In this document: positions 42,239-64,000 of the stretch, piece by piece
Layout: every line of letters starts with the position of its first letter
Position numbering within the stretch: the first letter of the stretch is position 1
Source of the DNA: Haplodiscus bocki
Taxonomy: Eukaryota
Assembly: GCA_965655095.1 (NCBI GenBank)
Contig: OZ296653.1
Span: forward strand, 19,902,001 to 19,966,000
Length of the DNA: 64,000 nt
Reading direction: 5' to 3'
Made by a program: the position numbers and the translations under genes
Notes under the pieces: model-generated
Told to the model about the DNA's origin: nothing
What the model saw: the letters and a program-made list of their open reading frames with translations, nothing else
Databases searched by the model: none

Positions 42239-43929
42239 TTTTATTTTCAAATGTGAAGCGCCTAAGTCTCATTGATTTGCCGTGTTTGGCGTATAATAGC
42301 GGTCAGTGATTATTCATTCCAGTTTAAAGAACTGAGAAAAACATACACAAAATTGCCGTAAGGGTCAGTTAGTCGGGTGGCGAATGGTCGGGAGATAAAA
42401 GCGGGACAACGTAAAAGACATTTGTTATCTGTTTTTATGTATATATGAAAACAGAAAATGCGGAGAGCAGCCACCAAGCATTCACAGTAATTTGGCAAAA
42501 GTAGTGGATATCTGAGTGGCAGATTATCAAGGGATAAATGGAGGATATTTCAAAATTTTTTGGTTTAATTTTTCTCAAGAGATTTCCGCTATAAAAAATT
42601 GCTTTTCGATTTTTTTATTTCTAACGAAAGAGGGGTATCACTAAAATTTTCGACGATTTGCTGAAAGAGAAAAAGGGAAAATGCAAAGGGGGCGTCGCGA
42701 AAAATAGTTACGTTCGACACTGTCTTCACAGAAACACTCTCTGGGAGGAACAATGCTGCCAGAAAAATGCAGAGACGAAACTCTCAAGCAAAATTGAGCA
42801 AAATTGTATCGACTCGAATGGAGGTCTATCGTCTCAGTAACTCTAATAGTCGGCATCTTCACTTTTGGAAAAGCACCGACAAAAAAGAACTCAAATATTA
42901 CCGTATAAAACTCTATGATGTGATTAAATCTAGATCATGGAGATCCTGGAGATTTTTCCTGCAAAACGCTTTGGATCCTTCAATTTTATACCTACTAAAT
43001 ATAGAAACTGTTTTTAAACCTGCTTCCCGGCTTCAAATTTTTCCGATAAAATTTCATGCAGAACTAAGATCAAAGGCTTCCAATTGTACAAAAAACGCTG
43101 CTGGTTTGTTTTCATTATCATTCATTTCTTGTCGAATTTTCTCAGTCGCAAAAAAACTAATGCATCTGTAACCTGAAATACTATTCCAATCAAAACGGAA
43201 TTTGTTATTTAACAGTTTTCAAGAAGCTACGTTGTCTCTTCGCTCATCACTTGCTGCAAAACGTCAGAAAAACTTTAATGTGAATTCATCATCTAGAGTT
43301 TTCGGTTACTGATTAGAAGTAACGAAAAAATTTATGTCAGTTTATGTTGAAACTATGGAAGTTCAGTGGATGGAGCTAGAAAAAATTCCACTGCGAAAAA
43401 TCTTTTCGCATTAGCAGTGATTAAAAGTCAAATTATTGCATGCAGAGATAATAAAGCTGTACAGGAGTCCCCCGATACACATCTCAGATTAGTTGCAAGT
43501 TAAAGGGAACAAGATTCTTTCGTCTAAAATAATACAGTATCAAAACTTTTAAAACGGCAGAAATTCGCATGAAGTTTATTGAGCTCGACATTTGGAGAAC
43601 AAACATTGTGGAGGAAATATCGTGAGAAAAAACCTAATATTTCTCAAATTTTTAGCAACAAACTCAAAATTGTAAAATCTACGGAAATCAGAAAAGTTAT
43701 CAAATGTTTTGGTGCTTCGTTTTTTTCTTCAGTTTTTTTTGATTTTTTTTCCAAATTTGTGCTATCAAATTTTGTCACCATTTTGCTATCTGAAAACGGG
43801 GTGTAACGATTTAAAGCTCGTATTCTCCGAAAAACGTTTGGGTTTTCACCTTTCTTTAATATCGGAGCCGGAGATGAGATATTATGAGAACGATGTGTTG
43901 TCGCGTTATAACTAACGCTTAAACAAATG

Positions 43930-45982
43930 TGTTATAATTCTATATTTCCTAAATACGTGCAGTAATCTATTAAACAGGAAATGACTAAGGCTTAACAAGA
44001 GAACTGCGTGTGTTATTGACTAACCTGGGAGCTGAGCTGGTGAAAGGAGGAATAATACGATATAAAAGAGCTGAAGGATTGGAATTGCAAAGGGAAGAAA
44101 AAGGAAAATTTCTAAAAGCGTTGGAATGTGGTTCAACGCGATTGGCTAGTACGGTCACATGACCAGTGACGTACCATAGCTTCATTTTGGAGTTGGTACG
44201 GGAAAGCAGCTCGATCATTACGTACTTACTCGTTTACTGGCCGGCAGCCATACTTCTTTCCCTTTATTTTATTCCCTTTCCTTTTTACCTTGCTTTCTCT
44301 TCCTTCCTGCTTGGTTAAAATTAATCTGAATTCTCTTCCTTCTTTCCTCGGACGAAATCATTCTAAGACAGTTCCAAATTTGTCCTTGCTGCATATTCTG
44401 CTTACAGAACCAACCTATTCGCTCTCGATTTCTCACCAAATGATCCTATTGGCTCTCGCCGAAACTGGAAAAATACGCGGCCATTCGAGTATAAATACCC
44501 AGAGCACAACCATAATATTCATTCGCTTGCTACCACCAACTACCCTACTTCCCCGAGGCGAAACTCTCTTCCACCTCCCTCTCACCAATATTCTGGAAAA
44601 ATTCAAAGAGTTTTCATCAACAACCCGAAAATCTTCAAAGACTTTTTCGCCTGCAAAATTGTCTTTGCCGCAAGCCACCAATAACCCGGAAATATTCAAA
44701 GACTTTCCAACCAGCAAAAGCAACCAGCAGCAGCAACCAGCAGAAGCAACCAGCAGCAGCAACCAGCAGCAGCAGCAATCAGCAGCAGCAATCAACAGCA
44801 GCAACCAACAGCAGCAATCAACAGCAGCAACCAACAGCAGCAATCAGCAGCAGCAATCAACAGCAGCAACCAACAGCAGCAATCAGCATTCGGCCTACCA
44901 GCAGCACCTACACAATCAACGCCGACCTCCGCTAGTTACCATTACGGTTCCTAGTAGAGGATATCCCGCTAGCAGTTGACCTAGGACTAGCTGCCCGGTA
45001 GCAGAATGTAATCACCGCACCGAGGCCCATTTTTGTTACTTTTCCACTTTTCTAAAATTCATTTTTGTGTTTTTTCCCTTTTTTGCTAAGACTTAGTTTT
45101 AAATATTAATTGGTAAAAGTAAAACAAATAAAATTCACGACCAGTTGACAGTCCATATGACTTATGTCCTGGTAGCAGATAAAAAAGAATGAAATTTATT
45201 GCTGGTGTCCCGTGGGTCCGGACTGTTAAACGGCAGGTGGCTAAACACCAGCTTAAGATTACGACCGGACGAGTGGAATATCCATAGGGTGGTCAGTTTT
45301 TATACTAAGAGTAGTGTACAATGCATGTAATTTAAAATGCATGTAAACTGAACTCCCTTTCTCTACAGACTGGCCTATCCAGCTTGAGACTAAAACAGGG
45401 ACTAGTCTTTTTTAACCCGTCAGCCTAGAAACCTAGAGAAAGACGTGGTTTAGCTAAACGTAGAACAAACTATAAAGTGACGGGCTAAAAAACCGACTAT
45501 ATCAGACGGGACTTGTTCGTCAGCCGCACTAGTCAAAAAGTAAAATGCTGTATGTTTACTCTATTTGGTCTATTCACAGATTTCCAGTTTCAACAGCAGC
45601 TATTGTGGGTGTGGATCGGCTTTAATTTTGATGTTTTATAAATTTAATTTATAATTTTAAAATTTATTGGGACTAAATTTGAATAGTCCAAGAGTCTAAT
45701 TGTGATAATTCATTTTATAATGCAATTAGTCTGAATTGAGCGAGTCCACTTTCTATCCATGATTTATAGTTTTTTAATTCAATTCAGTTTAATTATTTCA
45801 ACTTTTATATTTTAATTAATAACTTTAATTCAGACTAAACTAAAGTAGTCTGAATTAGTTGATGCTGGCTACAATTTATAATTTTAATTCCGACTAAAAT
45901 GAAATAGTCTGAATTAGTTGACGTTAATCACAATTTCACTTTCAAAGTGAAATTAACTTGACGTTGATTAATTTTCATAACA
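43930..45982. mobile_element. LTR-like segment (TGTTAT...ATAACA) of uncertain origin
   Basis: 6-bp inverted termini, TATA at 44490, AATAAA at 45127, TGGTAGCAGA (tRNA-iMet PBS-like) at 45170, ~60-bp repeats at ~45650-45960. No matching TSD. Confidence 0.35.
44710..44910 (+). repeat. CAG/CAA-rich compound minisatellite (~39-bp higher-order unit)
   Basis: Repeated cagcagcaaccaacagcagcaatcaa; translates as SSNQQQQSTAATN repeats. Confidence 0.9.
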
Positions 45983-46170
45983 GTTTGTGGCATCCCCTTT
46001 TTAACCCCTCGTTTATTCTTCTGACTTCTTATTGAATAAAATCGGTATCTTCACTAACTTCACGGGTTAAATTTAAAAAGAAGTTGATAAAATTGAAAAG
46101 ATAAATATGTATACAAATTGCTGTGCTAATAATGATTTAAATTAAAGGAGAGAAAGTCGATTATATATAG

Positions 46171-46541
46171 TGTAACTGTATTGCGTAAAATTTAAGACCA
46201 TGTGGCAGTTTTCCCTGTGCTATCCCACGTTTGCAGCCTGCAGTCGGATCTGAATAAATCCCCCTTAAGTACGTGCAGTCATATGTCTTTCCGCAATTCA
46301 ACATATTGGAATACCTTCGCTGACAATTTAACTTTCCTTTGTATTATTCTCCGCTATTGCTTACAAGTCCTTGCTTGAATTCAGGCAATCCCTTTGTTCG
46401 CACGGTTAAGCAAGGCACACTATTGAGACTTATAAAGAATGGCCGTCGCTACAACGCAGCAGTGCTGACTGAGTCAACCGCCAGCACAACTAAGTAAATA
46501 ATAATACATTTGCAATACCTCTACCCCCACAACCTGCGACA
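46171..46541 (+). repeat. Putative 5' LTR (371 bp)
   Basis: TGTAAC...GCGACA, TATA-like tataaag at 46431, followed after 3 nt by a TGG-initiated PBS-like sequence. The left boundary cannot be confirmed without the 3' LTR. Confidence 0.6.
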
Positions 46542-46544
46542 AAC

Positions 46545-46560
46545 TGGTGCGACAGTGAGG
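46545..46560 (+). promoter_or_regulatory. Primer-binding site candidate TGGTGCGACAGTGAGG
   Basis: TGG start 3 nt after the LTR-terminal CA; cognate tRNA not identified. Confidence 0.55.
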
Positions 46561-46567
46561 CGTTTCA

Positions 46568-47048
46568 ATGAGCTATGATTCTGAAGTGTCGCATAATCTT
46601 TTCTCCGCTTTCCCAACCTGGTCAATTTCAGTTTTCAGCCTAATTCTTATATTGGGTGCTTTGATTTCATTCATTACCGGCGCTTCATTTGGTAAAATAG
46701 TTAACTGGGTCTTAGATTTTAACCGGAGCATTTTCAACCCCAACCGACTGAGAATCTATACCCAAGAAGTTTTTCATCGAGTTTAGGTCCTTCAACTGAG
46801 CTCGACGACAGTTTTTGATAAATTTATTCGATTTTTGAGATGAGTCAAGACTTAATAATTTATTTATATGTGCTGCTTTTAATAGTACTGGTGTTATTGC
46901 TAACTCCTCCTCTTTTGGTTGCACTATTCGAGATTGACGACACTCTGAATAACAGAAACTCTGCTGGTCGGAAATGAGAGGAGACCTTGTGCTTTTCCTA
47001 TATCTCCTGCTGATTCTCTTATTATCTCTACTCTTTGGACCCAACTAA
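46568..47048 (+). pseudogene. Three small hydrophobic ORFs (46568-46843 with one internal TAG; 46840-46977; 46974-47048) linked by ATGA overlaps
   Basis: Each has one long hydrophobic stretch; stop/start ATGA at 46840-46843 and 46974-46977. Confidence 0.6.
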
Positions 47049-47119
47049 ATCTTTGCAGTAATTAAACCTGGGCAAAATCTGAACAAGCAAGCTGACTACT
47101 AACTGATCGACGCCTCTGG

Positions 47120-48221
47120 AACTTGGAAAGGATCCTAACCAGCATTGGTATTTCTTTGAATACAACGAATTCAAAACTTATTTTACTATTCTGCCCGTGA
47201 ACGTCAGAAACTCCAACTGAACAATTAAAAGTGATAATTACAAGGATCGATTTCACCGTCAAAAGACAGTTTCGACTCTGATTACAAGTTTATCCTGAAG
47301 GAGAACCCCTATTCAGTAAATTCTCTACATTGAGGATATTCCACGAGCATTTTGACTCAGCAATCGCCGCTATTCAATATTACCACGAGTTTCCAGAGCT
47401 CGAATTTCCTGAATTGGACTTGACAGTTCTCAATTCACTCCTAACTGATCCAGTGGTGAATCACTATACATAGACAACTTCAATCGTTCTTTCATAATAG
47501 GTTCGTGTTAACACCTGATGCCCCAAAAATTTGAAAGTTCGATGACGCATTTGGACGAGCTACCCGAAGAAGCGTGCAAACATACTCCACTAAATTGCAT
47601 CTGGCTTATCACCACCCAAGACACGAGTCCAACGGTAATCATAACCTGTTTAAAATGGACCTTCAATTTGGAATTTTGTGTACGAGTAACAGCCTATCCG
47701 CTGGGAGCACCAAACATTTCTAAACAAATAGATCTAGACAATCATCATACTCTGCTTAAATCCTTAACTGATGCACTCCTTTTATACGACGCTCTCCCCG
47801 AACCTCAATTAAGTTCCCATCAACTTGCACATTTGGAAGAGCTAATGGAATATCTGCATTTCAAATTCTGAAAAATTAAATTCCACAAAAAATTGCGGAC
47901 CTTGCACCAAACTGGGGTGATATCCAAAAAGAATGCCAACATATTCCACGGAATTGTCCGTGGACTATTGCTTGTGAAGACGGAACCCTAACATTCATCA
48001 TTAGGAGTTTAGAATGGACTTTCAACTATGATTTTTGGATAAGAGTGACTGCCCACCCAGAAGAAAACCCAAGTATTTCGAAACAAATAAACATTGATAA
48101 ACAACATCCTTTGCTTGAATCTCTATCATAGGTGCTAAACGATTACATCAGATTTCCCGAACCCCATAAAAATTCCCTCCAACTTCATATTCTTGGAGAA
48201 CTACTAGACATCTTACTTTGA
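47120..48221 (+). pseudogene. Three tandem paralogous ~115-aa accessory ORFs (~47120-47473 broken; 47518-47871 intact; 47880-48221 with ATT start and one stop)
   Basis: Shared core VIITCLKWTFNLEFCVRVTAYPLGAPNISKQI / FIIRSLEWTFNYDFWIRVTAHPEENPSISKQI / VIITRIDFTVKRQFRL*LQVYPEGEP. Confidence 0.75.
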
Positions 48222-48239: not shown

Positions 48240-49662
48240 ATGGCCAATGCTCATCTTGCTCATCCAGACTTGGAACTGGACAAAATTTCTGGCAACGACC
48301 CAGACCAAGATGCAGAAGCGTTCATCCGCTTAATAGAGTGCAAGATTAGTTTTGCTCTCGGAACCGAGCCAGACGAGGCCGACGCAGAACATGTTATCTA
48401 TCTATTCAGAAAGAAGGCTTTATTTTCCTCATTACTAAAAGGACCCGCAGCCGAATGGTATGGCAGCACTATTCAAGACGCGATGACATGGAATGAGGTC
48501 CGAACTCTGTTCTTAACCAGATTTTCAGATTGAAGAAACAAATTTAGACACAGAATGGAAGTTGAACACTGCATACGAGCTGATGGGGAAGATATCCGAA
48601 ACTTACTTCACCGAATAAAGAAGACAGTGGAAAAAGCGCTGGCCTGATGATATGGTTGGAATCGCTCCCGGCGATCAGAATGCTGAGCGCACCGCACAAG
48701 CCCGGCAAAGAAGACAAAGATAAATCGACTACACCCTAAAAGGACTCAGACCTAGATACCTACAACGAAAAGCTCAAGAGTATTTGATGGAACACCCAAA
48801 TGCAACTTGGAATGATTTTTCAACCCACTTAATTAACAGAGATGTATCCTATCAAGTCTCTACTAGCTTCCTGAACGACGAAGAACAGAATAAGGCTCAG
48901 ATGGCCTCCTTGGGACAAGAAATAAAAAACCTACGAGCGGAGCTGAAAGAACACAGAACAAACGCTGTAGAAGGAAACCAGGAGCCTATTGACCCTAACC
49001 AGAAAGGAAGACAGAATGCTACAAGGTTTTGTGGTTATTGTAGAACCAATGGAAACACTTCTAATTATTGCAGAAGGCAGATACGAGATGAAAAAATCAA
49101 GAAGTTGCAGAATGAAGCCACACCTGAGAAAAAAATTACGTTCACCCGAGATTACAACGAAAGACGTAGACCCTCCCACGGATGTGGAAATTGGACTAGA
49201 CGAAACGATGATAATGGGGTTATGATGTCAACCCCTCGACCTTTCGATAGAGGAAAGTTCCAGCCAAACAGTCAGAATTTTAACAACTTCAGACAAAATA
49301 GACCTTTCAAGCGAGGAAACCACACGAATGACAACAGTATTCGGTACAATGAGTACAGAGCAAGATCACCGTACCAGCCAAACCAGGACGAATCTAGAAA
49401 TTGGAGAAATAACAGTGATTCTTCACGATCGCCTTCAACGTCGAGACAAGAATCATCCTTCAGGGATTTTCGCAATCAACCCCGATCAAATTCGCCTCAC
49501 CATTTTGTGTTTAACCGGTTTGGAAATCGAGGCCCGAGCAACAATATGTCCTACGACAAGAAATTCCCAACTTCCAACAACGGTAACCAACCAAACGTAG
49601 TTCGATTCACTACAACAGACGACGAAATCAGTACGTTATCGGGACTGTGCCCTTTAAACTAA
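48240..49662 (+). pseudogene. gag: gag (disrupted)
   Basis: Capsid-like LKGPAAEWY...TWNEVRTLFLTRF; knuckle CGYCRTNGNTSNYC (H replaced by N); N/R/S-rich tail; stops at 48533 and 48723 and a frameshift near 48640. Confidence 0.88.
49653..49659 (+). promoter_or_regulatory. -1 ribosomal frameshift slippery heptamer T TTA AAC at the gag/pol junction
   Basis: In-register X XXY YYZ immediately before the gag TAA; pol is in the -1 frame. Confidence 0.8.
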
Positions 49663-50520
49663 TGAGGTCTCCGAGCTCAGCTACTGACCAGTCCAAGAAT
49701 TCAAGACTCAGCTTCAACTTTTTCTACTTTGCCACCGGAGACACTCAAAAAGATAGTGGCTTAGAAATTGAATTCATGCTAGATACTGGAGCTTCTAGCT
49801 CAATCATAAACTATCGAAACTTTTGGGAAATCTGCCAAACCCAGGACACTATTACGGTGAAAATAAGCACTACACAAACAAAGACTTGTTCTGGCCAAGT
49901 TATGCCTATGATTAGTTTTGCAACATTAACATTCAGTTACGACCCGTATGGACAATTTTCTTTTCCTTCAACCGTCTGAATTACCAAAAAAAGACTCAGA
50001 ACCTTCTCGGCAAGGACTTCTGTCAAAAACAAGTATCTCGCATTCACTTTGATTTATCCGGAATTGAACTTAAAGAGCCACCAAATACTGTTTGTAATGG
50101 AAACCTTCAAAGGAACAAATCGTACCCTTTCATTTCGCAAATACTCACCATTGGAACCCCACATGCAATGCACATTGAAGCCATGAGCGCAAGATGCTGG
50201 AAGTATTCGCCTGAAGATCCTCAGGCTCACTTTCTTCCTGGATCAACTTTTTATCCAAATCGCAATGCTGTCGCTACAGGATTAACTTTTGTCAATTTAT
50301 TATGCACTCGATCAGAATCAAAGCTGCCTATACTCATGGAAAACAAGAGGAACCACCAAATCAGGGCCGAATTGGTTTTTCATCATTAGACGTTTCTGAC
50401 ACTGATAAACCAAAGTACCAAGTACGAGACCCTTACGAGCTGACAAACGCAATTCTCTAGACAAACGAACAGTGCAACGATTGTTTTCTACTACACTCAA
50501 CAATTCCTCCTCAGTCACAC

Positions 50521-50905
50521 GATGATTTCCTGCAAATTGTCTATGGGAATGAAAATTCTGTCCTTGACCAACCCAACTCAATCGGCCATTGCATCTCTGC
50601 AGACGCTCAGATGAGTAAAGTGTTTGCACAATAGACGAGCCAACTTTCTGAAGGACCAAGTATTTCCCGTTTGGGACTCTTCTTCAAGACGATATATCTA
50701 TAATCTGGTAACGAAGGAGAAATATTTAGATAAACCAGATTTGTCAACTTTGGCTACAACATTGCAAAATATGCAAGCCCACGCCACTATGCACGGAGTT
50801 TTAACGATTGCTATACCAAAGATTGGATGTGGTCTTGATCAGATGAACTGGTGAGATGTATTAAATATGTTTGCTTATTCAGATATACAAATTGTGGTCT
50901 ATTCA
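50521..50905 (+). other. TARG1/OARD1-type macrodomain embedded in pol (disrupted)
   Basis: SIGHCISADAQMSK, RYIYNLVTKEK, KP, IAIPKIGCGLDQMNW and DIQIVVY match the TARG1 motifs SLAHCISED..MG, YIYYLITK, SMPRIGCGLDRLQW and IKITVY. Confidence 0.88.
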
Positions 50906-53900
50906 CCGGACGAACACGCAAATCACGCTATGTCCGACGAAGGAGATCCGGAATTCTATGCTGAAGATAAAATAGACCGATATAGCGAAGAATTTTATTT
51001 GAACGAAAGGGAACTGGAAACCGATTTCACCAGTGACGCTCATTCTTGTCAACCAGATTGCGACGAACAATTTCCCATTTTACGCCCGGAAGAACAAAAC
51101 GAAGCTCTTATTGAGCACTATCTTCAGTGTCAGCCTGAAGAACTACCTGATTAGGTTAAACAATTCGATTTTCAGTACTCAGACAAAACAGATAATGAAA
51201 TGACTCTACTCATTGTTATGCTGATCGACTCGAAGGATGTGTACTCCCTCCACAAATTCGATGTTGGGAAGACCCGACAAAAATTTCACGTTACGTTGAA
51301 ACCAAATGTGGAGTTGAAACGTCAACGAGCGAGCAAAGTGCCACCACATCTGAAAGACAAGCTCGAAAAACTACTAACACGCCGATATCATTCGAGAAAT
51401 GGGCAACGATGACGAAATGGGATCTCTCTTTGTTACCCCAATAATCTTGACGCTAACGAACGACTATGTCAAACTAGTGATTGCTGCCCGCTATCTGAAC
51501 TCAGTGACTGACCTCACAAACTACTCCTGGCCGTTGGAACCAATTCAGATGATTATGAGAAGAGTGAACGGAAAATACTTCTCAGTCAGTGAATTGTCCT
51601 GTGCCTTACATCAGGTACCCCTTAGCTTCGAAACACAGAAATTGACAAGTTTCATCATCGGAGGACGACAAAATGTTTTCACCCGAGGATTCTATGGTCT
51701 GTGTGGCCTACCGAATTTCTTTAGTCGTTTGATGACGATTCACTTCGACCCAATGATTGGGAAGAAACAGGCAATTACTAACATTGATGACACTATCATG
51801 CAATCGCAAACCAGAGGCGAGATGTTTACCATCATCAATGAAATTCACATCCTTCTGCGGAAGGCTGGGTTAAAAGCTGCCCCAGACAAAACGTTTTTCT
51901 TTCTGAAGAAAGTGAAGTTCTTGGGACACGTCATCTCACCTGATGGAATTCATTCCATAGCAAAACGCGTAGATGCCTTATTGAACCTCAAGTCACCCCA
52001 GCTCAAGCGGGATTTTATGAAGGTCTTGGGATGTCTTGGTTTCTACAGCTGCTATATTACGAACTTACACGTTGATAATCAGCCCACCTCTGACTTAACT
52101 AAAGATTCTACCCCATTCCTTTGGACTGAGGAACATGAAAAGCTCTTTAACTCCATTAAAGAAAGAATTCAGAAAGATACAGTTCTAGCAGTTCCCTCTA
52201 CTGATTACCCGTTTCATATTCATGTGGACTCCTAAAATGTTGGTACAGGTTGTATTCTTATCCAACATTTCCCCGAGGGAAAGAGAATTATCTTGTTCAA
52301 CTCTCGCCTATTTGACAAAGCAGAGCAAAAAATGTCCAATCTTCACCGAGAACTATGCGGAATCGTATCAGCTGTTCAGACATATGAACACTACATCATT
52401 AGGTCACCATTCTTTTTTTATCTTTATTGTACCCATAAACCAATTCTTTCTTTATGGGGACGCAAACGACAACTATCACATCGTTTTTTCCGATATCATG
52501 TAATCATCACGAAATTCCAGAACTTGAGGATCATTTGGACACCAGGATCGAACTTAGCATTTCCAGATATTCTCAGCCGAAACATCACGATCGAAGAATA
52601 TCATATGCACCAGTTGCAACATAAACGTATTCCGCGTGATATTGAGTTATTGGATGAGAAGGGAACTCCAGTCTCATATCAAATTCAGCATGAGGACAAC
52701 CCTAACAATACTTGCAACGACTTTTACCCAATCAGGTACAAGCGAGGCGACGAAGAAAAAATATAACAATTACAAAATGACGGCGAAGACTTTACAGTCA
52801 GTAGCCTAATTGACAAACTCCCATTTAATTCAATTCAACAAGCTTCTGACTGTTTCCGAATGGGACTGTTTATCAACCAGTTTAGAAGAATGTGTGGACC
52901 AGAGGCTCAATCAAATCTATCCGTTAACACATCTGATACTGACTATAGTTCAATCGACTCCTTTAGTTCGTCTGCAGATGACACAACAGATCCAACCAGT
53001 CACGGCGATGCCTCATGCGACATCAATACGGACTCCGAAGATGACAATATCGTTTGTGATATCAGTATTCAAGCTAATAAACCCCTACTCTGTCAAAGCA
53101 AACAAACTCACGAACTTGTGCTCGAGAAATCCGATGCTTCTCTACCCAAGAAACTCCTAACAATCTCTGACGCTCCTCATCTAGACATCAAAGCCTTGAT
53201 TCGGAAACTTGACGAAGTTGCGAAGACAGTAGATCTCGATGTATCAACCATTCTTGCAGAACAAATGAAGGACCCATGTTCTGGTACTGTACGTTCTTGG
53301 ATTCATGAAAACACTACCCCCGATAAGAAAGTACCAGAAATACAACAATCTAAAGCTCTCCTGCGATATTGCCAAAATTTTGACAGACTTCTTATTGAAG
53401 ACGAAGGACAGCTCCTTTGTTACAATGAGCCATCTGACAAACTAGAAAAAGAAAACTTCTGTATTTGCCTCCCTTTATCTCTATTCTTTGCATGTTTCCG
53501 TTTGGGACACTACAACGAAATGGGTTGACACATGGGAGCAATAAAAACCTATGCCAATGCCAGAAGTTCTTATTACTGTTCCCGAATGTTTGATTGGATA
53601 TGCGCTTTGACAGCCGATTGCCTTACCTGCCAAAACAACAAACCTAAACCGAAGCATCGAAACGAAGTTCCACTCGAAGAATGGCAAAACGAAACAATCT
53701 CCTTCCGCACTCTACACCTTGATCATAAGGGACCTCTTCACCCAACTAGTGCTGGCAACGTACATTGTCTCTTAAGTATTGATGCATTCTCTCGATTTTT
53801 GATGGTCCCTCCAGTACGTAATACTACAGCCCTAGCAAAAATAATAGCCGTTGAAAAGTGGATCCTTCCTTTTGGAATCCCGCAATCGATCATCCATGAC

Positions 53901-55487
53901 CGAGGTACTGCTTTCATCATTACAGAGTTCATCAATTAGACCAAAAAACTTGGAATTACCCTAAGACCTCGTCCAGCTTATTCACCCTGGACAAACGGTA
54001 AAATTGAAACCCAGAACCAATATATTGCTCGAAATTGGAGAAACTTTCTTAATGATGCCGGAAATAACTGGTCCACACTAGCACCGAAGTTTGCTTCGGC
54101 CACAACACGAGTGTCAACTACACGACTGGAAAAACCCATACGAAATTGACATTGGGACTAAACCACAAAATCCTACGTTACTCAAGCTGGGACTTTATTG
54201 GAATAAACACAAACTTTGCTGTTCTAAAATCTGTGAAAACCTCCCTTCTCATTCTCATGGTGAGAACAGCTTGAAGAACGAATTGTTGGACAAGCTACTT
54301 CAACCGCAATTATCACAAGCTATTTTGGAAAGAGAACGAACCTTCAAACGAATCTATTCATCAACCTTTGAACCATGCCGAGAACAGACAGCACAATCAC
54401 ACGCCTATCGCAATCGCTTCAAGTTGGGACACCACCTCGAAGTAGGACAGAAAGTGCTTCACGAAAATCTTAAGCAAGATTCCACACGGAGCCACAAACT
54501 TCAACAGCGAAGACTTGGACCCTTCACCGTTACCAAGCGTATCACGAATACCACCTATCAAATTGAAGATGATAAAGAGCCTACAGTTATCAAAGCTGTT
54601 CAAAGAAACCACCTTGTTGAATACTATCCTAAAGAAGGATTTTTACCCGCAATGATAGAAAAGTATGTACCTTCTGATCACCAGAATGACATTTTCTGCG
54701 AGCGTTTTATGGAACAACGCAACGCACCCGAGATCTGAAAAATCCAAGTACCACAGAAAACTATGATTTTCCCATTCCCGATAGAACCGTTACGATCCAT
54801 TCCGCCCATAGGCCAGCCAAAACGATCCAGTATGCAGAGTAACGATTCTGGAATTACTTCTCCATTTGCTTCTTCTCGCACCCCTGTACTATCATCTGCA
54901 ATTCCCACGGAAACAACAACCCCCCATCCATCCTCTTCTCAGCAAGCAAAACCTGCTCAATTGTCGCACAGGGCACACCTCAGTCCGATTCAAAAAATTA
55001 TTCGTAAAAGTGCCAACCGAATGGCCAAAAATAGCGTTAATTCGCGCCCTAAAGAGCCCAAATATAACCGCTTGCAGCCAAATTACCCGGATTCTCAGTC
55101 AGTTTTGAGGATAATTACTCGACAGAGCTATAAACTTTGATCCCCTTTACACTATTGCCACATTTTTATAACTTTTGTGTTACATCAACCCTTATTTTCT
55201 ACTCGCGAATATTGCCTTCTTCGATTCTCAACTACAATTAACAAGATGGCTATGATCCCTCAGCATCGAACAACTCAACGTTCAGACGCCTCGAAGTTTT
55301 TGCCATCAATTCGTTTTCTTCATATTTTCTACATTCTTTTACAAAAACAATCGAAAAAGCCAAAAAAAACTTTATTTGTTGTGTAAATACAAAGAAGAAA
55401 GCCGCACAGTAAAATAAAGGACGAGACAGATAAAAAACCGCCGAGGGTTAAAAGGCCCCCGACGACCGACAGAGCCGAGCGACTTAC

Positions 55488-56216: not shown

Positions 56217-56660
56217 ATGTATGTCAAAATTGACGGAGAATTCAAGTCAATAAAAAGAATCGAGCTGAAATCCGACACAGCAACGATCCTCATTCACACC
56301 ATAGAAGACGAGGGCCGGGAAGAGGAATACATGTGTTTTTCTGACTCCCCTAACTATTACCATATGCGCTGTTTGTTGTCTCCAGACATCTACATAATCA
56401 GTGACAATATTTCTGGCAATAAGGAGCATATTATTTAAACGACACTCTTACTCCTCCGGATTGACAATCAACTGCAGTGTATTGTGGGCTTAACTTTTAT
56501 CACTGGAACAAAAGATTTCATGGTAACAACTCAATTTACTAACAACGACCAGATAACAACCTTCATTTGCTCACCCGAATCAACTCGTTATCCTTTTATT
56601 GAAGCTATACTCATGAACCCTCCCCCGAATCACATTAAAAGTCAGAACGGGAAATTTTAA
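56217..56660 (+). pseudogene. Two in-frame 73-codon modules separated by one TAA, unknown function
   Basis: Acceptor ttctcag at 56202; halves share xxxID....I and xxC...S..Y patterns. Confidence 0.45.
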
Positions 56661-57211
56661 ACGATTGTTCACAACAGACATTTTTATTCCAGATAACCTG
56701 GAGTGTGGAAACTCAGAACCCACAATTTGAATGCATCAATTAGAAATATCAATCTCGCAGTCACACACAAACACACCACTCAACAGAGTTAATCTCAATT
56801 GTAAATGGACTTCATTTGATTTGTGAGAGTGTAAAATCACTAATATTTTCTGGTTACCCAAAGGGAGCCCCTTACAAGCGCGAAAAGACCCGGTTGACAA
56901 TCTACCCACTGTAGTTGTTATCCCAATACCTGCCCGCACAGCAGAATTCGCCAAGCTCTTTGTGACCCTCGGAATTTGGCCACTCCGTCTTTGGACACGA
57001 CGGAAAATCAAAGATTGGTAGATCTCCTCGCGTAAATGAAAGTTAACCTGGAAACCTACACTTGGGTGTCACTGATCAACCTGTTGCACGAAACTTGCTA
57101 TCTTTACGACCTGAACTAAAAAATAGACGAGGAAGGTAGATGAGTTCTTCAAAATCCCTACGAAGTTTTGACAAAGTAACCAATCTGCTTCACCACTAAA
57201 CAAAAGCCCAA

Positions 57212-57591: not shown

Positions 57592-59792
57592 ATGAAAAAT
57601 TCCACTCTACCCTCCCCATTTGCTAAAACATAGGATGTTATAAACCAGGTCTTCTTTCTAATTATTTTAGCCAGTTTCAGGAATGGCAAGCTTGAAAACG
57701 CAGATTTGCAAAAAGTAGCCTCCCAACTCAAAGTGACACATTACGACGGTGGAGAGATGACAGAGAATAACCTCTACGCCTTAACCCAAGTTTCCAAATG
57801 CAACATTGCTCCTGAAAACCTAGAAGTCAGCAGAGCAAAACTCACAATGTACACAAAACATCTTCGACAAGAAATCAACGCAACATTTTGTAGAGTCAAA
57901 TATCAAAGTGAACAATGGCACTGTGGCTGTGCAGACGATTCAAACTTGGTCGCCCATCAAACAGGAGGAATAACAGTAGATTTAACCGTTACAGCATCTC
58001 AGTGCAGAACGTTAGCAAAAGGTGGTTCGATGACTTTAAAAGATGAGACACTCGAGTTCAAAAAAGGAGTAAAAACAACGGTAGTTAAACACAAGGATTT
58101 TGATGAATATGGAGTGGACCTCAGCGTTAAGTACAAAAATGAAGGCGACTCACATGCATGGGTAAATCGCAAAACATTTGAAGGTCATGTACAAGACGTC
58201 GTGCTTAAAGTACTCACTAAAGATGGCAAAATTATGAGCAAAGACGCACTGCAATTACAAAGACCTTTAGAAGAACTCGAATGTGACACTACTTCATTCG
58301 ACCCTTATGCATACACATGGGACGCCCCTGACAATTGAGTATTAGCTATTCATCGGAAGGAAGACGTTAACATGATCAAACAAGGAAAAACAACTACTAT
58401 ATTGTCGGTGGACGAAACAACACTAATCAGTATCTATTCGAGGTAAAAACGAAACCCGAAGTTTTCTGCAACAAACTAGTGCAAGTATACCCGACCAACT
58501 ATGACTCGTCATTCGTGGTTATCGACTTTGTTGGATTCGATCTAGTTTCTGGGAAAAAGATGGGTTTCTCAGGAGGAACACAACATCTACAATACTACCA
58601 GCCTTCAGTCTCATCTGACGGCAGACTATTCGTACACAAACCTGAGTCCCCCATACAGATAACCCTAACTCAGAAACACCTCACTACCTCAACCTGGATT
58701 GTGAACTCCATCAAGGAACGAAACTGGAATATCTTTTTTTCGAAAGCTCAAAGATGCTTGAAGGCTCCGATATACAACTTCTAAAGAACTTATGCGAACA
58801 AGAAAGAACCCAAATTTTAACTATTTGGATGCTTTTAATGCAGAACCCACGTCTAGCTGGTTATATGTTAACTGTGTTTACTGGGGATTGCTCTATGTTC
58901 CTCAGTACCGATGGAAGCCTCGCTTGGTTTGTATCACTGCCCTTTGATGCGTTCTCCACCACACGTGATGAATCAATGTTATGAGAGAATTCCTATCTTC
59001 TACAAAAGTGCTATCTTTTTTGTCGACCCAATGACCCGACAAACCTGCCCAGATGCCCAGGTTCAAAATTGCTCTGACCGGATTAAGAATCTCTTCCAAA
59101 TTGATATGGAATGTGGTTCACTAATACACCTACTCTAGAGCACAGGAAACGACCAGCAGTATTTACACCAGAAGAAGTAACTCCTGTATCCAGAAGAGCT
59201 TTTGGTGGAGCAGGAGATGCTGGAATTTACACACGAGCACAGCTATCTGAATTTTCGGACAATATCTTTATCAGCGCTGCTTCAAGGAAAGCTTTGCAAA
59301 AATTGTCAACTCATTGTCACCAACACGGCAATTCATGGACCAGAACAATATTCTTATTTTGCTCCACGAACAAACATCTATGTGGACAACATGATTTCCC
59401 CCAGTTACTTCAAAAATCAATTGATGGACACGTTTGGATCAGTTGCCTATGTCTTAGAATTTTGTGCAATATACTTCTTTTGCTTCTTTTTAATCAAGCT
59501 CATCGTTGATCTCGTAGTCATGATTTTACGACACATGGAAATTAACCGTCTCACTGGCGCATCGCTTGGATTTGGAAAGACACTCCTGAGCGCTTCTTAC
59601 ATTTTGTTTTTGACGTCTATTTCAAGGTCAGTATTCAATCCCCAAGCTCCTATTTTGCAGGCATTGGAACCCGAACCAAGGCCCACAAGAGTAGAAGACG
59701 AGAATAGAGATCCAGTAGACGAAAATACGAAAAAGGAGGAGCACCTTCATCCGATGGTTCATTGCTCCACTACGGTTCTTTCGCCTGTTTGA
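57592..59792 (+). pseudogene. env: env-like glycoprotein related to chuvirus (Jingchuvirales)-type G, disrupted
   Basis: Acceptor at 57586; N-terminal hydrophobic stretch. Collinear motifs THYD, FCRVK...WHCG, SQC, LCEQER, YHC, CYERIPI, GIYT, and the C-terminal TM region FFCFFLIKLIVD. Several stops and frameshifts. Confidence 0.78.
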
Positions 59793-59869
59793 TTAGGATA
59801 ATATGAGCGTTATCCTGACAGCCTTTTTATTAATTTATTAATTTCATTTTTTTATAAATTCTTTTTTAG

Positions 59870-60634
59870 AATTCAGACGACCAACTACTTCCTTTGCTGG
59901 AAGACGACGAACTGAACGCGCTGGTCAACGGAATTGACTGGGACCAACCCTTATCTCCACTTGATTTAAAATTGCCAACGGACCCAGATATTATTACCCT
60001 TCTTTCTTCTTCTTCTCCTCTCGCTCCAGTTGGTTTGCCGAATCAGCCAAATAAACCGTTGGTCAACAAATTCCTCCAATCCCTAACAAATACCCCGATC
60101 CACTTTACAGATCACCCTACGACCTCTCACCAAGAGTCTCGAGTCAGTATTCTATTGCCTTCATTGCGTAGTTTCAAAGCCTATTCTAATAAAACCCAAT
60201 CGGAGGAAACACATTCTAATTCCTCTTTGCCAAAACGACTCCGCTCTAATTCAACAGCTCTGGGAACATCGACTCAAGACGCTAGTGCAAATCTTTCACG
60301 ACCGAAACGATTTCACCAATACCAGCAAATTCTCAAACAGAAGCGAACAGAATGTTATTATCGGCAACATAAATCTGTCAGAAGGCCTCGATACAACACC
60401 CGTCTACATTACCAACTAACTAACGCTTTTTCTTCTGGGGAAATCATGTTTTGGGATTGTAAAAGACAGGAATATACCATCCAGGACACTGCTTTATCAC
60501 CACAGAGACTCGTGGTACCCCTGACAACTATCGAAGTACAGCCTGTCGAAAGACACCGAATCCACTCGCACCCATATTCAAGCCAACAAACTGCTCACGA
60601 TTATTCACAATATACCGCCGAGTTGCTGACGTAA
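59870..60634 (+). CDS. ORF-X, S/P/T-rich then basic protein downstream of env (copies at 61113-61700, 62414-62983 and ~63650-end)
   Basis: Open for about 250 codons after a T-rich AG acceptor at 59869; acidic N-terminus and K/R clusters (PKRLR, RPKRF, VRRPR). Confidence 0.5.
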   Translation, partial: NSDDQLLPLLEDDELNALVNGIDWDQPLSPLDLKLPTDPDIITLLSSSSPLAPVGLPNQPNKPLVNKFLQSLTNTPIHFTDHPTTSHQESRVSILLPSLRSFKAYSNKTQSEETHSNSSLPKRLRSNSTALGTSTQDASANLSRPKRFHQYQQILKQKRTECYYRQHKSVRRPRYNTRLHYQLTNAFSSGEIMFWDCKRQEYTIQDTALSPQRLVVPLTTIEVQPVERHRIHSHPYSSQQTAHDYSQYTAELLT

Positions 60635-63070
60635 ATTGATGCATCTACTTCACAAGATATTATCGATCTTACTATTTGGATCAGTTGGACACGTTTGGAT
60701 CAGTTGCCTAGGTCTTAGAATTTTGTGGAATATACTTCTCTTGCTTCTTGTTTATCAAGCTCATCGCTGATCTCGTAGTCATCATTTTACGACACATGGA
60801 AATTAACCGTCTCACTGGCGCATCACTTGGATTTGGAAAGACACTCCTGAGCGCTTCTTACATTTTGTTTTTGACGTCTATTTCAAGGTCAGTATTCAAT
60901 CCCCAAGCTCCTCTTTTGCAGGCATTGGAACCCGAACCAAGGCCCACAAAAGTAGAAGACGAGAATAGAGATCCAGTAGACGAAAAAAAGAAAAAGGAGG
61001 AGCACCTTGATCCGATGGTTCATTGCTCAACTACGGTTCTTTCGCCTGTTTGATTAGGATAATATGAGCGTTATCCTGACAGCCTTTTTATTAATTTTTT
61101 AATTTCATTTTTTTGAAATTCTTTTTTAGAATTCAGACGACCAACTACTTCCTTTGCTGGAAGACGATGAATTCGACGCTGGTCAACGGAATTCACTGGG
61201 ACCAACCCTTATCTCCACTTGATTTAAATTTGCCAACGGACCCAGATATTATTACCCTTCTTTCTTCTTCTTCTCCTCTCGCTCCAGTTGGTTTGCCGAA
61301 TCAGCCAAATAAACCGTTGGTCAACAAATTCCTCCAATCCCTAACAAATACCCCGATCCACTTTACAGATCACCCTACGACCTCTCACCAAGAGTCTCGA
61401 GTCAGTATTCTATTGCCTTCATTGCGTAGTTTCAAAGCCTATTCTAATAAAACCCAATCGGAGGAATCACATTCTAATTCCTCTTTGCCAAAACGACTCC
61501 GCTCTAATTCAACAGCTCTGGGAACATCGACTCAAGACGCTAGGGTAAATCTTTCACGACCAAAACGATTTCAGCGATACCAGCAAATTCTCAAACAGAA
61601 GCGAACAGAAAGTTATTACCGGCAACATAAATCTGTCAGAAGGCCTCGATACAACACCCGTCTACATTACCAACTAACTAACGCTTTTTCTTCTGGGTAA
61701 ATCATGTTTTGGGATTATAAAAGACAGGAATATACCATCCAGGACACTGCTTTATCACCACAGAGACTCGTGGTACCCCTGACAACTATCGAAATACAGC
61801 CTGTCGAAAGACACTGAATCCACACGCACCCATATTCAAGCCAACAAACTGCTCACGATTATTCACAATATAGCGCCGAGTTGCTGACGTAAATTGATGC
61901 ATCTACTTCACAAGATATTATCGATCTTACTATTTGGATCAGTTGGACACGTTTGGATCAGTTGCCTATGTCTTAGAATTTTGTGGAATATACTTCTCTT
62001 GCTTCTTGTTTATCAAGCTCATCGCTGATCTCGTAGTCATCATTTTACGACACATGGAAATTAACCGTCTCACTGGCGCATCACTTGGATTTGGAAAGAC
62101 ACTCGTGAGCGCTTCTTACAATTTGTTTTTGACGTCTTTTTCAAGGTCAGTATTCAATCGCCAAGCTCCTCTTTTGCAGGCATTGTAATCCGAACCAAGG
62201 CCCAGAAGAGTAGAAGACGAGAATAGATATCCAGTAGACGAAAATAAGAAAAAGGAGGAGCACCTTCATCCGATGGTTCATTGCTCCACTACGGTTCCTT
62301 CCCTTGTTTGATTAGGATAATATGAGCGTTATTCTGACAGCCTTTCTATTAGTTTAAATAATTTCATTTTTTTATATATTCTTTTTTAGAATTCAGACGA
62401 CCAGCCACTTCCTTTGCTGGAAGACGACGAACTCGACGCGCTGGTCAACGGAATTGACTGGGACCAACCCTTATCTCCACTTGATTTAAATTTGCCAACG
62501 GACCCAGATATTATTACCCTTCTTTTTTCTTCCTCTCCTATCGCTCCAGTTGGTTTGCCGAATCAGCCACCTAAGCCCTTAGTTAACAAATTCCTCCAAT
62601 CCCTAACGAATACCCCGATCCTTTTTACAGATCAGCCTACGACATCCCGGGAAGAGTCTCGAGTCAATATTCTATTGCCTTCATTGCGTAGTTCCAAAGC
62701 TTATTCTAATAAAACCCAATCGGAGGAATCACAATCTAATTCCTCTTTGCCAAGACGACTCCGCTCTAATTCAACAGCTCTGGGAACATCGACTCAAGAC
62801 GCTAGGGCAAATCTTTCACGACCAAAACGATTTCAGCGAAACCAGCAAATTCTCAAACAGAAGCCAAGAGAAAGTTATTATCGGCAACATAAAGCTGTCA
62901 GAAGGCCTCTATACAACACCCTTTTACTTTACCAACTAACTAACGCTTTTTTCGTCTGGGGAAGTCATGTTTTGGGATTATAAAAGACAGCAATATGCCA
63001 TCCAGAACACTGTTTTATCACCACAGAGACTCGTGGTACCCCTGACAACTATCGAAGTACAGCCTGTCGA

Positions 63071-63370
63071 ATGACACTGAATCCACACGCACCCAGATTC
63101 AACCTGACAAACTGCTCACGATTATTCACAATATACCGCCGAGTTGCTGACATGAATGGATGCATCTACTTCACAAGATATTATCGATCTTACTATTTGG
63201 ATCATTTGGACACGTTTGGATCAGTTACCTATGTCTTAGAATTTTGTGGAATATACTTCTCTTGCTTTTTGTTTATCAAGCTCATCGTTGATCTCGTAGT
63301 CATGATTTTACGACACATGGAAACTAACCGTCTCACTGGCGCATCACTTAGATTTGGGAACACACCCTGA
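63071..63370 (+). CDS. ORF-Y with PAM2-like N-terminus, fused across the repeat junction to the env TM segment
   Basis: MTLNPHAPRFNL (copy 2 reads TLNPHAPIFKP); the ATG overlaps the TGA that closes the ORF-X C-terminal frame (ATGA). Confidence 0.45.
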   Translation: MTLNPHAPRFNLTNCSRLFTIYRRVADMNGCIYFTRYYRSYYLDHLDTFGSVTYVLEFCGIYFSCFLFIKLIVDLVVMILRHMETNRLTGASLRFGNTP

Positions 63371-64000
63371 GCGCTTCTTACAATTTGTTTTCGACGTCTA
63401 TTTCAAGGTCAGTATTCAATCCACAAGCTCCTCTTTTGCAGGTATTGGAACCCGAACCAAGGCCCACAACAGTAGAAGACGAGAATAGAGATCCAGTAGA
63501 CGAAAATACGAAAAAGGAGGAGCACCTTCATCCGATGGTTCATTTCTCCACTACGGTTCTTTCGCCTGTTTGATTAGGATAATATGAGCGTTATCCTGAC
63601 AGCCTTTTTATTAATTTATTAATTTCATTTTTTTATAAATTCTTTTTTAGAATTCAGACGACCAACTACTTCCTTTGCTGGAAGACGACGAACTGAACGC
63701 GCTGGTCAACGGAATTGACTGGGACCAACCCTTATCTCCACTTGATTTAAATTTGCCAACGGACCCAGAAATTATTACCCTTCTTTCTTCTTCTTCTCCT
63801 CTCGCTCCAGTTGGTTTACCGAATCAGCCACCTAAACCGTTGGTCAACAAATTCCTCCAATCCCTAACAAATACCCCGATCCACTTTACAGATCACCCTA
63901 CGACCTCTCACCAAGAGTCTCGAGTCAATATTCTATTGCCTTCATTGCGTAGTTTCAAAGCCTATTCTAATAAAACCCAATCGGATGAATCACATTCTAA

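Follow-up and report, generated by a model that had tools for sequence, protein, structure and literature searches.

Three small ORFs, designated a, b and c, sit in the leader of an env-carrying Ty3/gypsy (Metaviridae) LTR retrotransposon in Haplodiscus bocki. Variants shared among copies of the element show that all three are under purifying selection, and we consider it moderately likely that leaky scanning together with reinitiation translates them from the genomic RNA, along with the ORFs that follow (d, e and f) and gag. The whole stretch of DNA analysed, referred to hereafter as the window, comprises 64,000 nucleotides of contig OZ296653.1.

The host element and the layout of its leader

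The following features were recognized in the window.

43891..46544, + strand: 5' LTR of about 2.65 kb; the 3' LTR lies outside the window at L031:4951-7618
46545..46561, + strand: primer-binding site (PBS), the same in sister families B and D
46568..46786, + strand: ORF-a, 72 aa, one predicted transmembrane (TM) segment, weak start context; present in all three copy types
46787..46839, + strand: a-b spacer, the readthrough extension of the original prediction; usually 56 nt, often open, without coding selection
46840..46977, + strand: ORF-b, 45 aa, with a predicted TM helix, proline kink and amphipathic tail; its stop overlaps the c start (ATGA)
46974..47102, + strand: ORF-c, 42 aa in the family, a paralogue of b; early stop at 47046-48 in the window copy
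47110..47473, + strand: ORF-d, 120 aa in other copies, soluble, a paralogue of e and f; broken in the window copy
47518..47871, + strand: ORF-e, 117 aa; predicted four strands and two helices, pLDDT 80.5
47880..48221, + strand: ORF-f, 113 aa in other copies, a paralogue of e; broken in the window copy
48240..49662, + strand: gag, fragmented in the window copy; the sole start with a purine at -3 and G at +4
49587..55140, + strand: pol (protease, RT, RNase H and integrase in Ty3/gypsy order), fragmented in the window copy
56217..57100 (end approximate), + strand: second cassette, three small ORFs before env, decayed in the window copy
57634..59792, + strand: env, a Monjiviricetes-type fusion glycoprotein (Pfam PF24664), fragmented in the window copy

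Pfam domains follow the order gag, then PR-RT-RH-IN, and the best solved relatives of the RT are Ty3 RT/Gag-Pol; the Ty3/gypsy assignment is based on this domain order and the nearest solved RT and is made at a level above clade. The match to PF24664 had an E-value of 3e-5 for the piece of env in the window and of 5e-32 for another copy. With its LTR-gag-pol-env order and PF24664 fusion glycoprotein, the element resembles the env-carrying metazoan Ty3/gypsy 'errantiviruses' with a class III-type env (PMC13524379); a term search of the main text of that paper returned no mention of accessory or short ORFs upstream of gag. The 2.65-kb LTRs are 92.1% identical to each other, the PBS directly follows the 5' LTR, and the window copy is old, with disruptions in many reading frames. 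Searches with two guessed patterns yielded no priming tRNA, and a search of the supplements of PMC13524379 likewise found none.

Between env and the 3' LTR lies a 436-aa ORF with a TRAF/meprin MATH domain (PF21355, E 5e-19; L031:3586-4905 and L183:7107-8417). It is broken in the window's element, and relatives that are 30-49% identical occur in families B and D. A literature search for gypsy elements with a MATH domain found no report. At window 59425-64000 and on into L031, the 3' end of env and the beginning of the MATH ORF are repeated in tandem within the element, in units of about 1.26 kb. Close behind the element is an inverted second copy of the window's family (L032:674-4609), with an LTR 79% identical and a MATH ORF remnant. 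Within the LTR, a CAG-rich 13-nt tandem repeat (window 44682-44905) varies in length among copies.

The original prediction, a reading of the window's letters and ORFs, described a chain of small TM ORFs right after the PBS, coupled by ATGA stop/start overlaps. Its coordinates (ATG at 46568, TAG at 46784-86, ATGA at 46840-43 and 46974-77), both tetranucleotides, the translations, the PBS just upstream of ORF-a (46545-61) and the 45 aa of ORF-b were all confirmed, and the proposed kinship of b and c was borne out by an alignment z of about 11.5 against shuffles. ORF-c has 24 aa in the window copy, but the family length is 42 aa, as the stop at codon 25 occurs in 1/78 copies, the window's own. 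The leader proved larger than reported: a, b and c are real, and d, e and f continue up to gag at 48240.

The chain itself was not supported by comparison among copies. ORF-a had been read through its TAG, yet the family ORF is 72 aa long and codon 73 is a stop in 67 of the 78 copies that have the region (TGA in 66, TAG only in the window copy). Because ORF-a ends there, the first 'overlap' (46840) requires stop readthrough. The overlap between b and c was kept in 51/63 full-type copies, whereas that between a and b exists only with readthrough. ORF-b begins with ATGA in 54/63 full-type copies, and the 19-codon extension between a and b is in frame and open in 41/63. Across three families, an ATGA overlap is found at 1/17 junctions. 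A 4-codon out-of-frame ORF within b (window 46868-46882) was present in 33/63 type I copies.

Conservation, duplication and loss of the leader ORFs

A search of the element's own genome with the ORF region as query returned 863 candidate loci, 40 of which were scored. The copy survey comprised 108 non-redundant copies from 120 loci, 12 duplicate loci having been removed. Three layouts were seen in the window's family (family A): a-b-c-d-e-f in 63 copies (type I, or full type), deletion of the b start in 15 (type II) and deletion of b and c in 30 (type III), where a lies 27 nt from d. Because copies were chosen for their resemblance to the window DNA, ORF-a or ORF-c, the sample is biased toward intact ORFs, and the type counts do not reflect frequencies in the genome.

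Median terminal branches were 0.072 for type I (30 copies), 0.052 for type II (8) and 0.026 for type III (29) in a midpoint-rooted tree that left out L040 and in which the types were not monophyletic. Thus b and c are missing from younger copies, the youngest group (30/108). From this younger age, a remnant of the c tail and the presence of b/c pairs in families B and D, we infer that b and c were lost in family A rather than gained. In the downstream stretches, env was found for 4/5 type III, 2/2 type II, 3/4 family D and 2/3 family B copies. Since b and c are absent from younger env-carrying copies, the microproteins would be dispensable accessories that coexist with env.

The sister families B and D were found in a profile search with d/e/f (116 proteins). 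They have the same PBS as family A, and the N-termini of gag are 60-77% identical. The leader of family B runs a', b', x, c', e', gag; in family D, five micro-ORFs with predicted TM segments and a single e/f-like ORF precede gag. Each family has its own b/c pair (z 7.8-21 against shuffles). Among the pairs of families A, B and D, pS was 0.67-0.96, so that synonymous sites are saturated, and pN was 0.35-0.51; second codon positions are 68-80% identical between families, and T is enriched at position 2 only. In family B (L124-L142), most leader ORFs and gag share one reading frame with single stops between them; its ORF x encodes 42-44 non-hydrophobic residues and has an AUG in only 11/19 copies. 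In another family (L143-L162), a 133-aa d/e/f-like ORF lies ahead of env, preceded by ORFs of 53 and 78 aa joined by a TGATG overlap.

In the selection test, variants common to at least three copies were used as a proxy for active lineages and compared to singletons, a proxy for post-insertion decay. Shared variants gave an omega of 0.29-0.39 for ORF-a (p<1e-6), 0.44-0.60 for ORF-b (p 0.006-0.05), 0.33-0.47 for ORF-c (p 0.001-0.006) and 0.15-0.24 for ORF-d, p-values that, like those given below for AUG counts, are generous because the copies are related and similarity-picked, whereas singletons gave values of about 1 or higher. A 28-copy test gave 0.15 for e, 0.22-0.29 for f, 0.10-0.17 for gag and 0.45-0.90 for LTR controls; two rearranged loci (L007 and L021) were left out of this test and of the copy trees. 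ORF-c gave about 1 in the 28-copy test, on 10 changes and thus with no power, and reached 0.33-0.47 when older copies were added. The +1 frame of ORF-c also scored (0.38-0.51). A test for hydrophobic-to-hydrophobic substitution in the TM segments was not significant (p 0.05-0.58).

The shared-variant values of 0.3-0.6 for a, b and c point to real genes, as the original prediction supposed. It had also named an outcome that would count against it, namely that the hydrophobicity merely reflects T-rich DNA, and this fails on the codon-position-specific conservation between families. T-rich DNA does not explain b and c because the sister families keep their pairs despite saturated synonymous sites. 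Although b and c are deleted from the youngest group of copies and, at one threshold, selection on b is of borderline significance (p=0.052), it is extremely improbable that the hydrophobic ORFs are untranslated by-products of T-rich leader DNA, given this conservation, the retention of start and stop codons and the paralogy of b and c.

Proposed expression of the leader ORFs

AUGs are scarce between the PBS and gag: 6.6 versus 18.8 expected in family D (17 copies, p=0.002), 11.4 versus 22.7 in type III (25 copies, p=0.005) and 12.0 versus 18.4 in family B (12 copies, p=0.08). Type I copies had 6.6 versus 15.4 expected between the PBS and the end of d and 9.2 versus 14.0 (p=0.11) over e and f, where about eight AUGs are shared among copies, so that in type I gag would lie beyond the reach of leaky scanning alone. 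In family D the six ORF starts are the only shared AUGs before gag. Out-of-frame AUGs were realised at 0.4 of 17.2 chances in the leader compared to 15.5 of 23.1 in gag in family D, at 4.4 of 23.8 compared to 13.2 of 23.8 in type III and at 2.0 of 14.9 compared to 9.2 of 20.0 in family B.

Start contexts were scored by the general Kozak rule, which may not be the host's preference. G at +4 was usual in 0/17 upstream starts and a purine at -3 in 4/17, where the 17 starts represent about seven independent ORF lineages and G at +4 is dictated by the second residue. The gag starts of all three families (3/3) have both. L040 was left out over e, f and gag, here and in the counts of AUG, UGGGA and poly(A) signals.

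In RTBV and badnaviruses, leaky scanning is marked by coding sequence free of AUGs and by weak upstream starts (PMC5902531), and reinitiation by TURBS is reportedly independent of Kozak context (PMC10275272). Leaky scanning with reinitiation is favoured because the leader has the RTBV/badnavirus-like pattern of AUGs and starts, which a Kozak-independent TURBS does not call for. Like these Caulimoviridae, the element has small ORFs before capsid/pol and tight or fused junctions; it differs from them as described in PMC5902531 in being an animal LTR retrotransposon with up to six such ORFs rather than two, with predicted membrane microproteins and with a second, pre-env cassette, and the likeness in mechanism is our reading of sequence. 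The polycistronic expression suggested by the original prediction is, given the avoidance of AUGs and the gradient of start contexts, probably the best account of the leader. Ribosomes would skip the weak upstream start codons on one RNA, which may serve all the leader ORFs, and reinitiation after short ORFs would supplement scanning toward d, e, f and gag.

Two further observations stand against leaky scanning with reinitiation. The first is the spacing of the ORFs, which scanning does not require to be tight. Junction gaps were 56, -4, 7, about 44, 8 and 18 nt in family A, 15, 6, 78, 0 and 9 nt in family B and 12-13, 0, 0, 10, 0 and 6 nt in family D; the 17 gaps thus range from -4 to 78 nt, 14 are within 18 nt and 4 ORF pairs abut directly. 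Tight stop-start spacing may sort ribosomes among the ORFs and keep the leader compact, rather than act by TURBS-style tethering. The second observation concerns a single lineage: in 11/15 type II copies, compared to 0/63 type I copies, a new in-frame AUG, the product of one event, opens a 17-codon ORF that ends exactly at the b/c overlap. Type II copies therefore do not show that coupling is unnecessary.

Both observations would also fit the mechanism put forward in the original prediction, coupled termination-reinitiation at an overlapping or abutting AUG, with or without a TURBS-like tether, and the regained AUG keeps such coupling at b/c a candidate. The stop and start overlap at b/c, as they do or adjoin at TURBS sites, and the ATGA is retained in 65/78 copies (51/63 of the full type and 14/15 without the b start). 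UGGGA, the core of TURBS (PMC3542737), lies 65 nt before the c stop in 56/63 copies and at the matching place in 19/20 family B loci. In these respects the leader recalls the TURBS of caliciviruses and influenza B and the UAAUG of SART1 as described in PMC3542737, PMC5902531 and PMC10275272. It departs from them in that no UGGGA accompanies the AUGA, no hairpin lies downstream and the geometry of the junctions varies among families. The TURBS-like motif sought 40-90 nt upstream of the stop at the b/c overlap was present in 0/63 copies, and UGGGA preceded e in 0/67, f in 1/67 and gag in 3/67; the family D leader has no shared UGGGA. The motif before the c stop falls within Leu-Gly codons, and variation at their third positions is not lower than at many others in c. 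RNA folding next to the overlap gave no stable structure (mean z 0.3-1.0), and a short ORF that overlaps c might just as well carry ribosomes beyond c to d. As coupling alone predicts neither the avoidance of AUGs nor the gradient of start contexts, we regard it as a rather unlikely explanation of the leader.

The second cassette bears on the possibility that the ORFs are expressed from separate mRNAs, arising through cis-splicing, trans-splicing of a spliced leader, early polyadenylation or internal promoters. Found in families A, B and D (L183, L186, L188, L190, L192 and L197), it consists of ORFs of 73, 73-74 and 112-140 aa, the third a distant relative of d/e/f; its stops and starts abut or lie close together, AUGs are fewer than expected, and a purine at -3 occurs only at the start of env. 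This cassette would have to use some subgenomic RNA. MDG1 elements make a short polyadenylated sORF1 transcript (PMC11952523), and AATAAA or ATTAAA was found in the d-e spacer of 19/30 type I copies; the hexamer was found in 0/8 type II and 0/29 type III spacers, however, and is not general. Some starts have a shared YAG within 25 nt (family A c, 53/67; family D z, 17/18, and f, 18/18), but many have none (family A d, 4/67; family B c, 0/18; family D b, 0/17; gag, 1-2 copies). Moreover, abutting stops switch among TAA, TAG and TGA, and monocistronic messages need no AUG-free coding sequence. Separate mRNAs for the leader ORFs therefore appear quite unlikely.

Readthrough, finally, would extend ORF-a to 92 aa ending on the b start, and if other in-frame stops were leaky as well, membrane-anchored fusions would result. 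In-frame a-b spacers are free of stops in 43/51 copies compared to 0.30 for shuffles, a rate that rests on few independent draws because the copies are related. Codon 73, TGA in 66/78 copies, is never TAA, the 27-nt a-d spacer of type III is open in 25/30 copies, and several junctions in families B and D are in frame. Against this, the extension has an omega of about 0.8 (p about 0.6), no third-position excess, no codon pattern and two shared stops; the spacer is 55 nt in seven copies, there is no downstream RNA structure, and equivalent stops change identity freely. Taken together, these data make readthrough very unlikely, and leaky scanning with reinitiation is retained as the preferred account.

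Predicted membrane microproteins and the accessory repertoire

LTR retrotransposons are commonly portrayed as gag-pol(-env), and the MDG1 group, with two leader sORFs, is the studied exception. The Drosophila MDG1-group sORF1/sORF2 resemble the ORFs described here in being small accessory ORFs between LTR and gag, carried there on unspliced genomic RNA, in their low dN/dS and in that one leader protein is a single-pass membrane protein, as is predicted here (PMC11952523). The present leader differs in holding five or six ORFs, with two paralogue families among them, and in the presence of env; MDG1 elements are described as being without env, with sORF2 serving as a FAST-like factor (PMC11952523).

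The b and c proteins are 42-45 aa long. Their hydrophobic segment begins near residue 5, a proline is conserved, and the tail looks amphipathic. ORF-a has one hydrophobic segment and five scattered Lys/Arg. Kyte-Doolittle 19-residue maxima of 2.4-3.0 support a single TM segment. FAST-type proteins have 63-107 aa, an ectodomain of about 30 aa, a juxtamembrane polybasic patch and a Gly-2 myristoylation motif (PMC11952523). Gly-2 was found in 0/12 micro-ORFs examined, and neither an ectodomain of that size nor a polybasic patch was found in b/c, which have 1-3 Lys/Arg after the TM segment. Identity with sORF2/FAST-like fusogens was therefore rejected, the single TM segment notwithstanding, and a-c are not assigned to these proteins.

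The size and hydrophobicity of the micro-ORFs would suit viroporins, and we offer as a guess that a-c have a viroporin-like or membrane-regulating role; a four-copy structure model of ORF-b, with a score of 0.10, speaks neither for nor against this. One may speculate that the single-pass microproteins are dispensable, fast-turnover accessory factors at host membranes, with possible roles in assembly, release or counter-defence, alongside Env and not replacing it. None of 11 small ORFs matched a Pfam family, and the ESM Atlas gave no usable match for e or c. For ORF-e, a fold search gave a best Z of 5.0 (PH domain, rmsd 5.4) and none of at least 8, and BFVD gave no match at E 0.001 or better.

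Parts of this arrangement have precedents: the leader sORFs of MDG1, the scanning polycistrony of Caulimoviridae and the extra ORFs of bdelloid LTR elements (PMC5408684). In a literature search that most subscription papers and Repbase lay outside, no published description was found of an env-carrying animal Ty3/gypsy element with five or six leader ORFs. We give even odds to the full picture, namely that an enveloped animal Ty3/gypsy lineage carries two operon-like cassettes, of up to six ORFs before gag and three before env, and about ten accessory genes. Among these would be a new and duplicating family of membrane microproteins (42-45 aa), a soluble domain that is likewise new and a TRAF/MATH ORF acquired by capture. 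Up to seven proteins would then be made per RNA, with junctions tuned to sort ribosomes, and a repertoire of the grade of complex retroviruses would have evolved independently in Metaviridae.

Natural variants, among them the overlap, the abutting stops and starts, the deletion of b, alone or together with c, and the regained AUG, make the mechanism testable with reporters. The microproteins, as predicted, would be a new set of membrane factors in the conflict between host and transposon. The gain, duplication and loss of leader ORFs among sister families that keep env may provide a natural experiment on the polycistronic limits of animal ribosomes.
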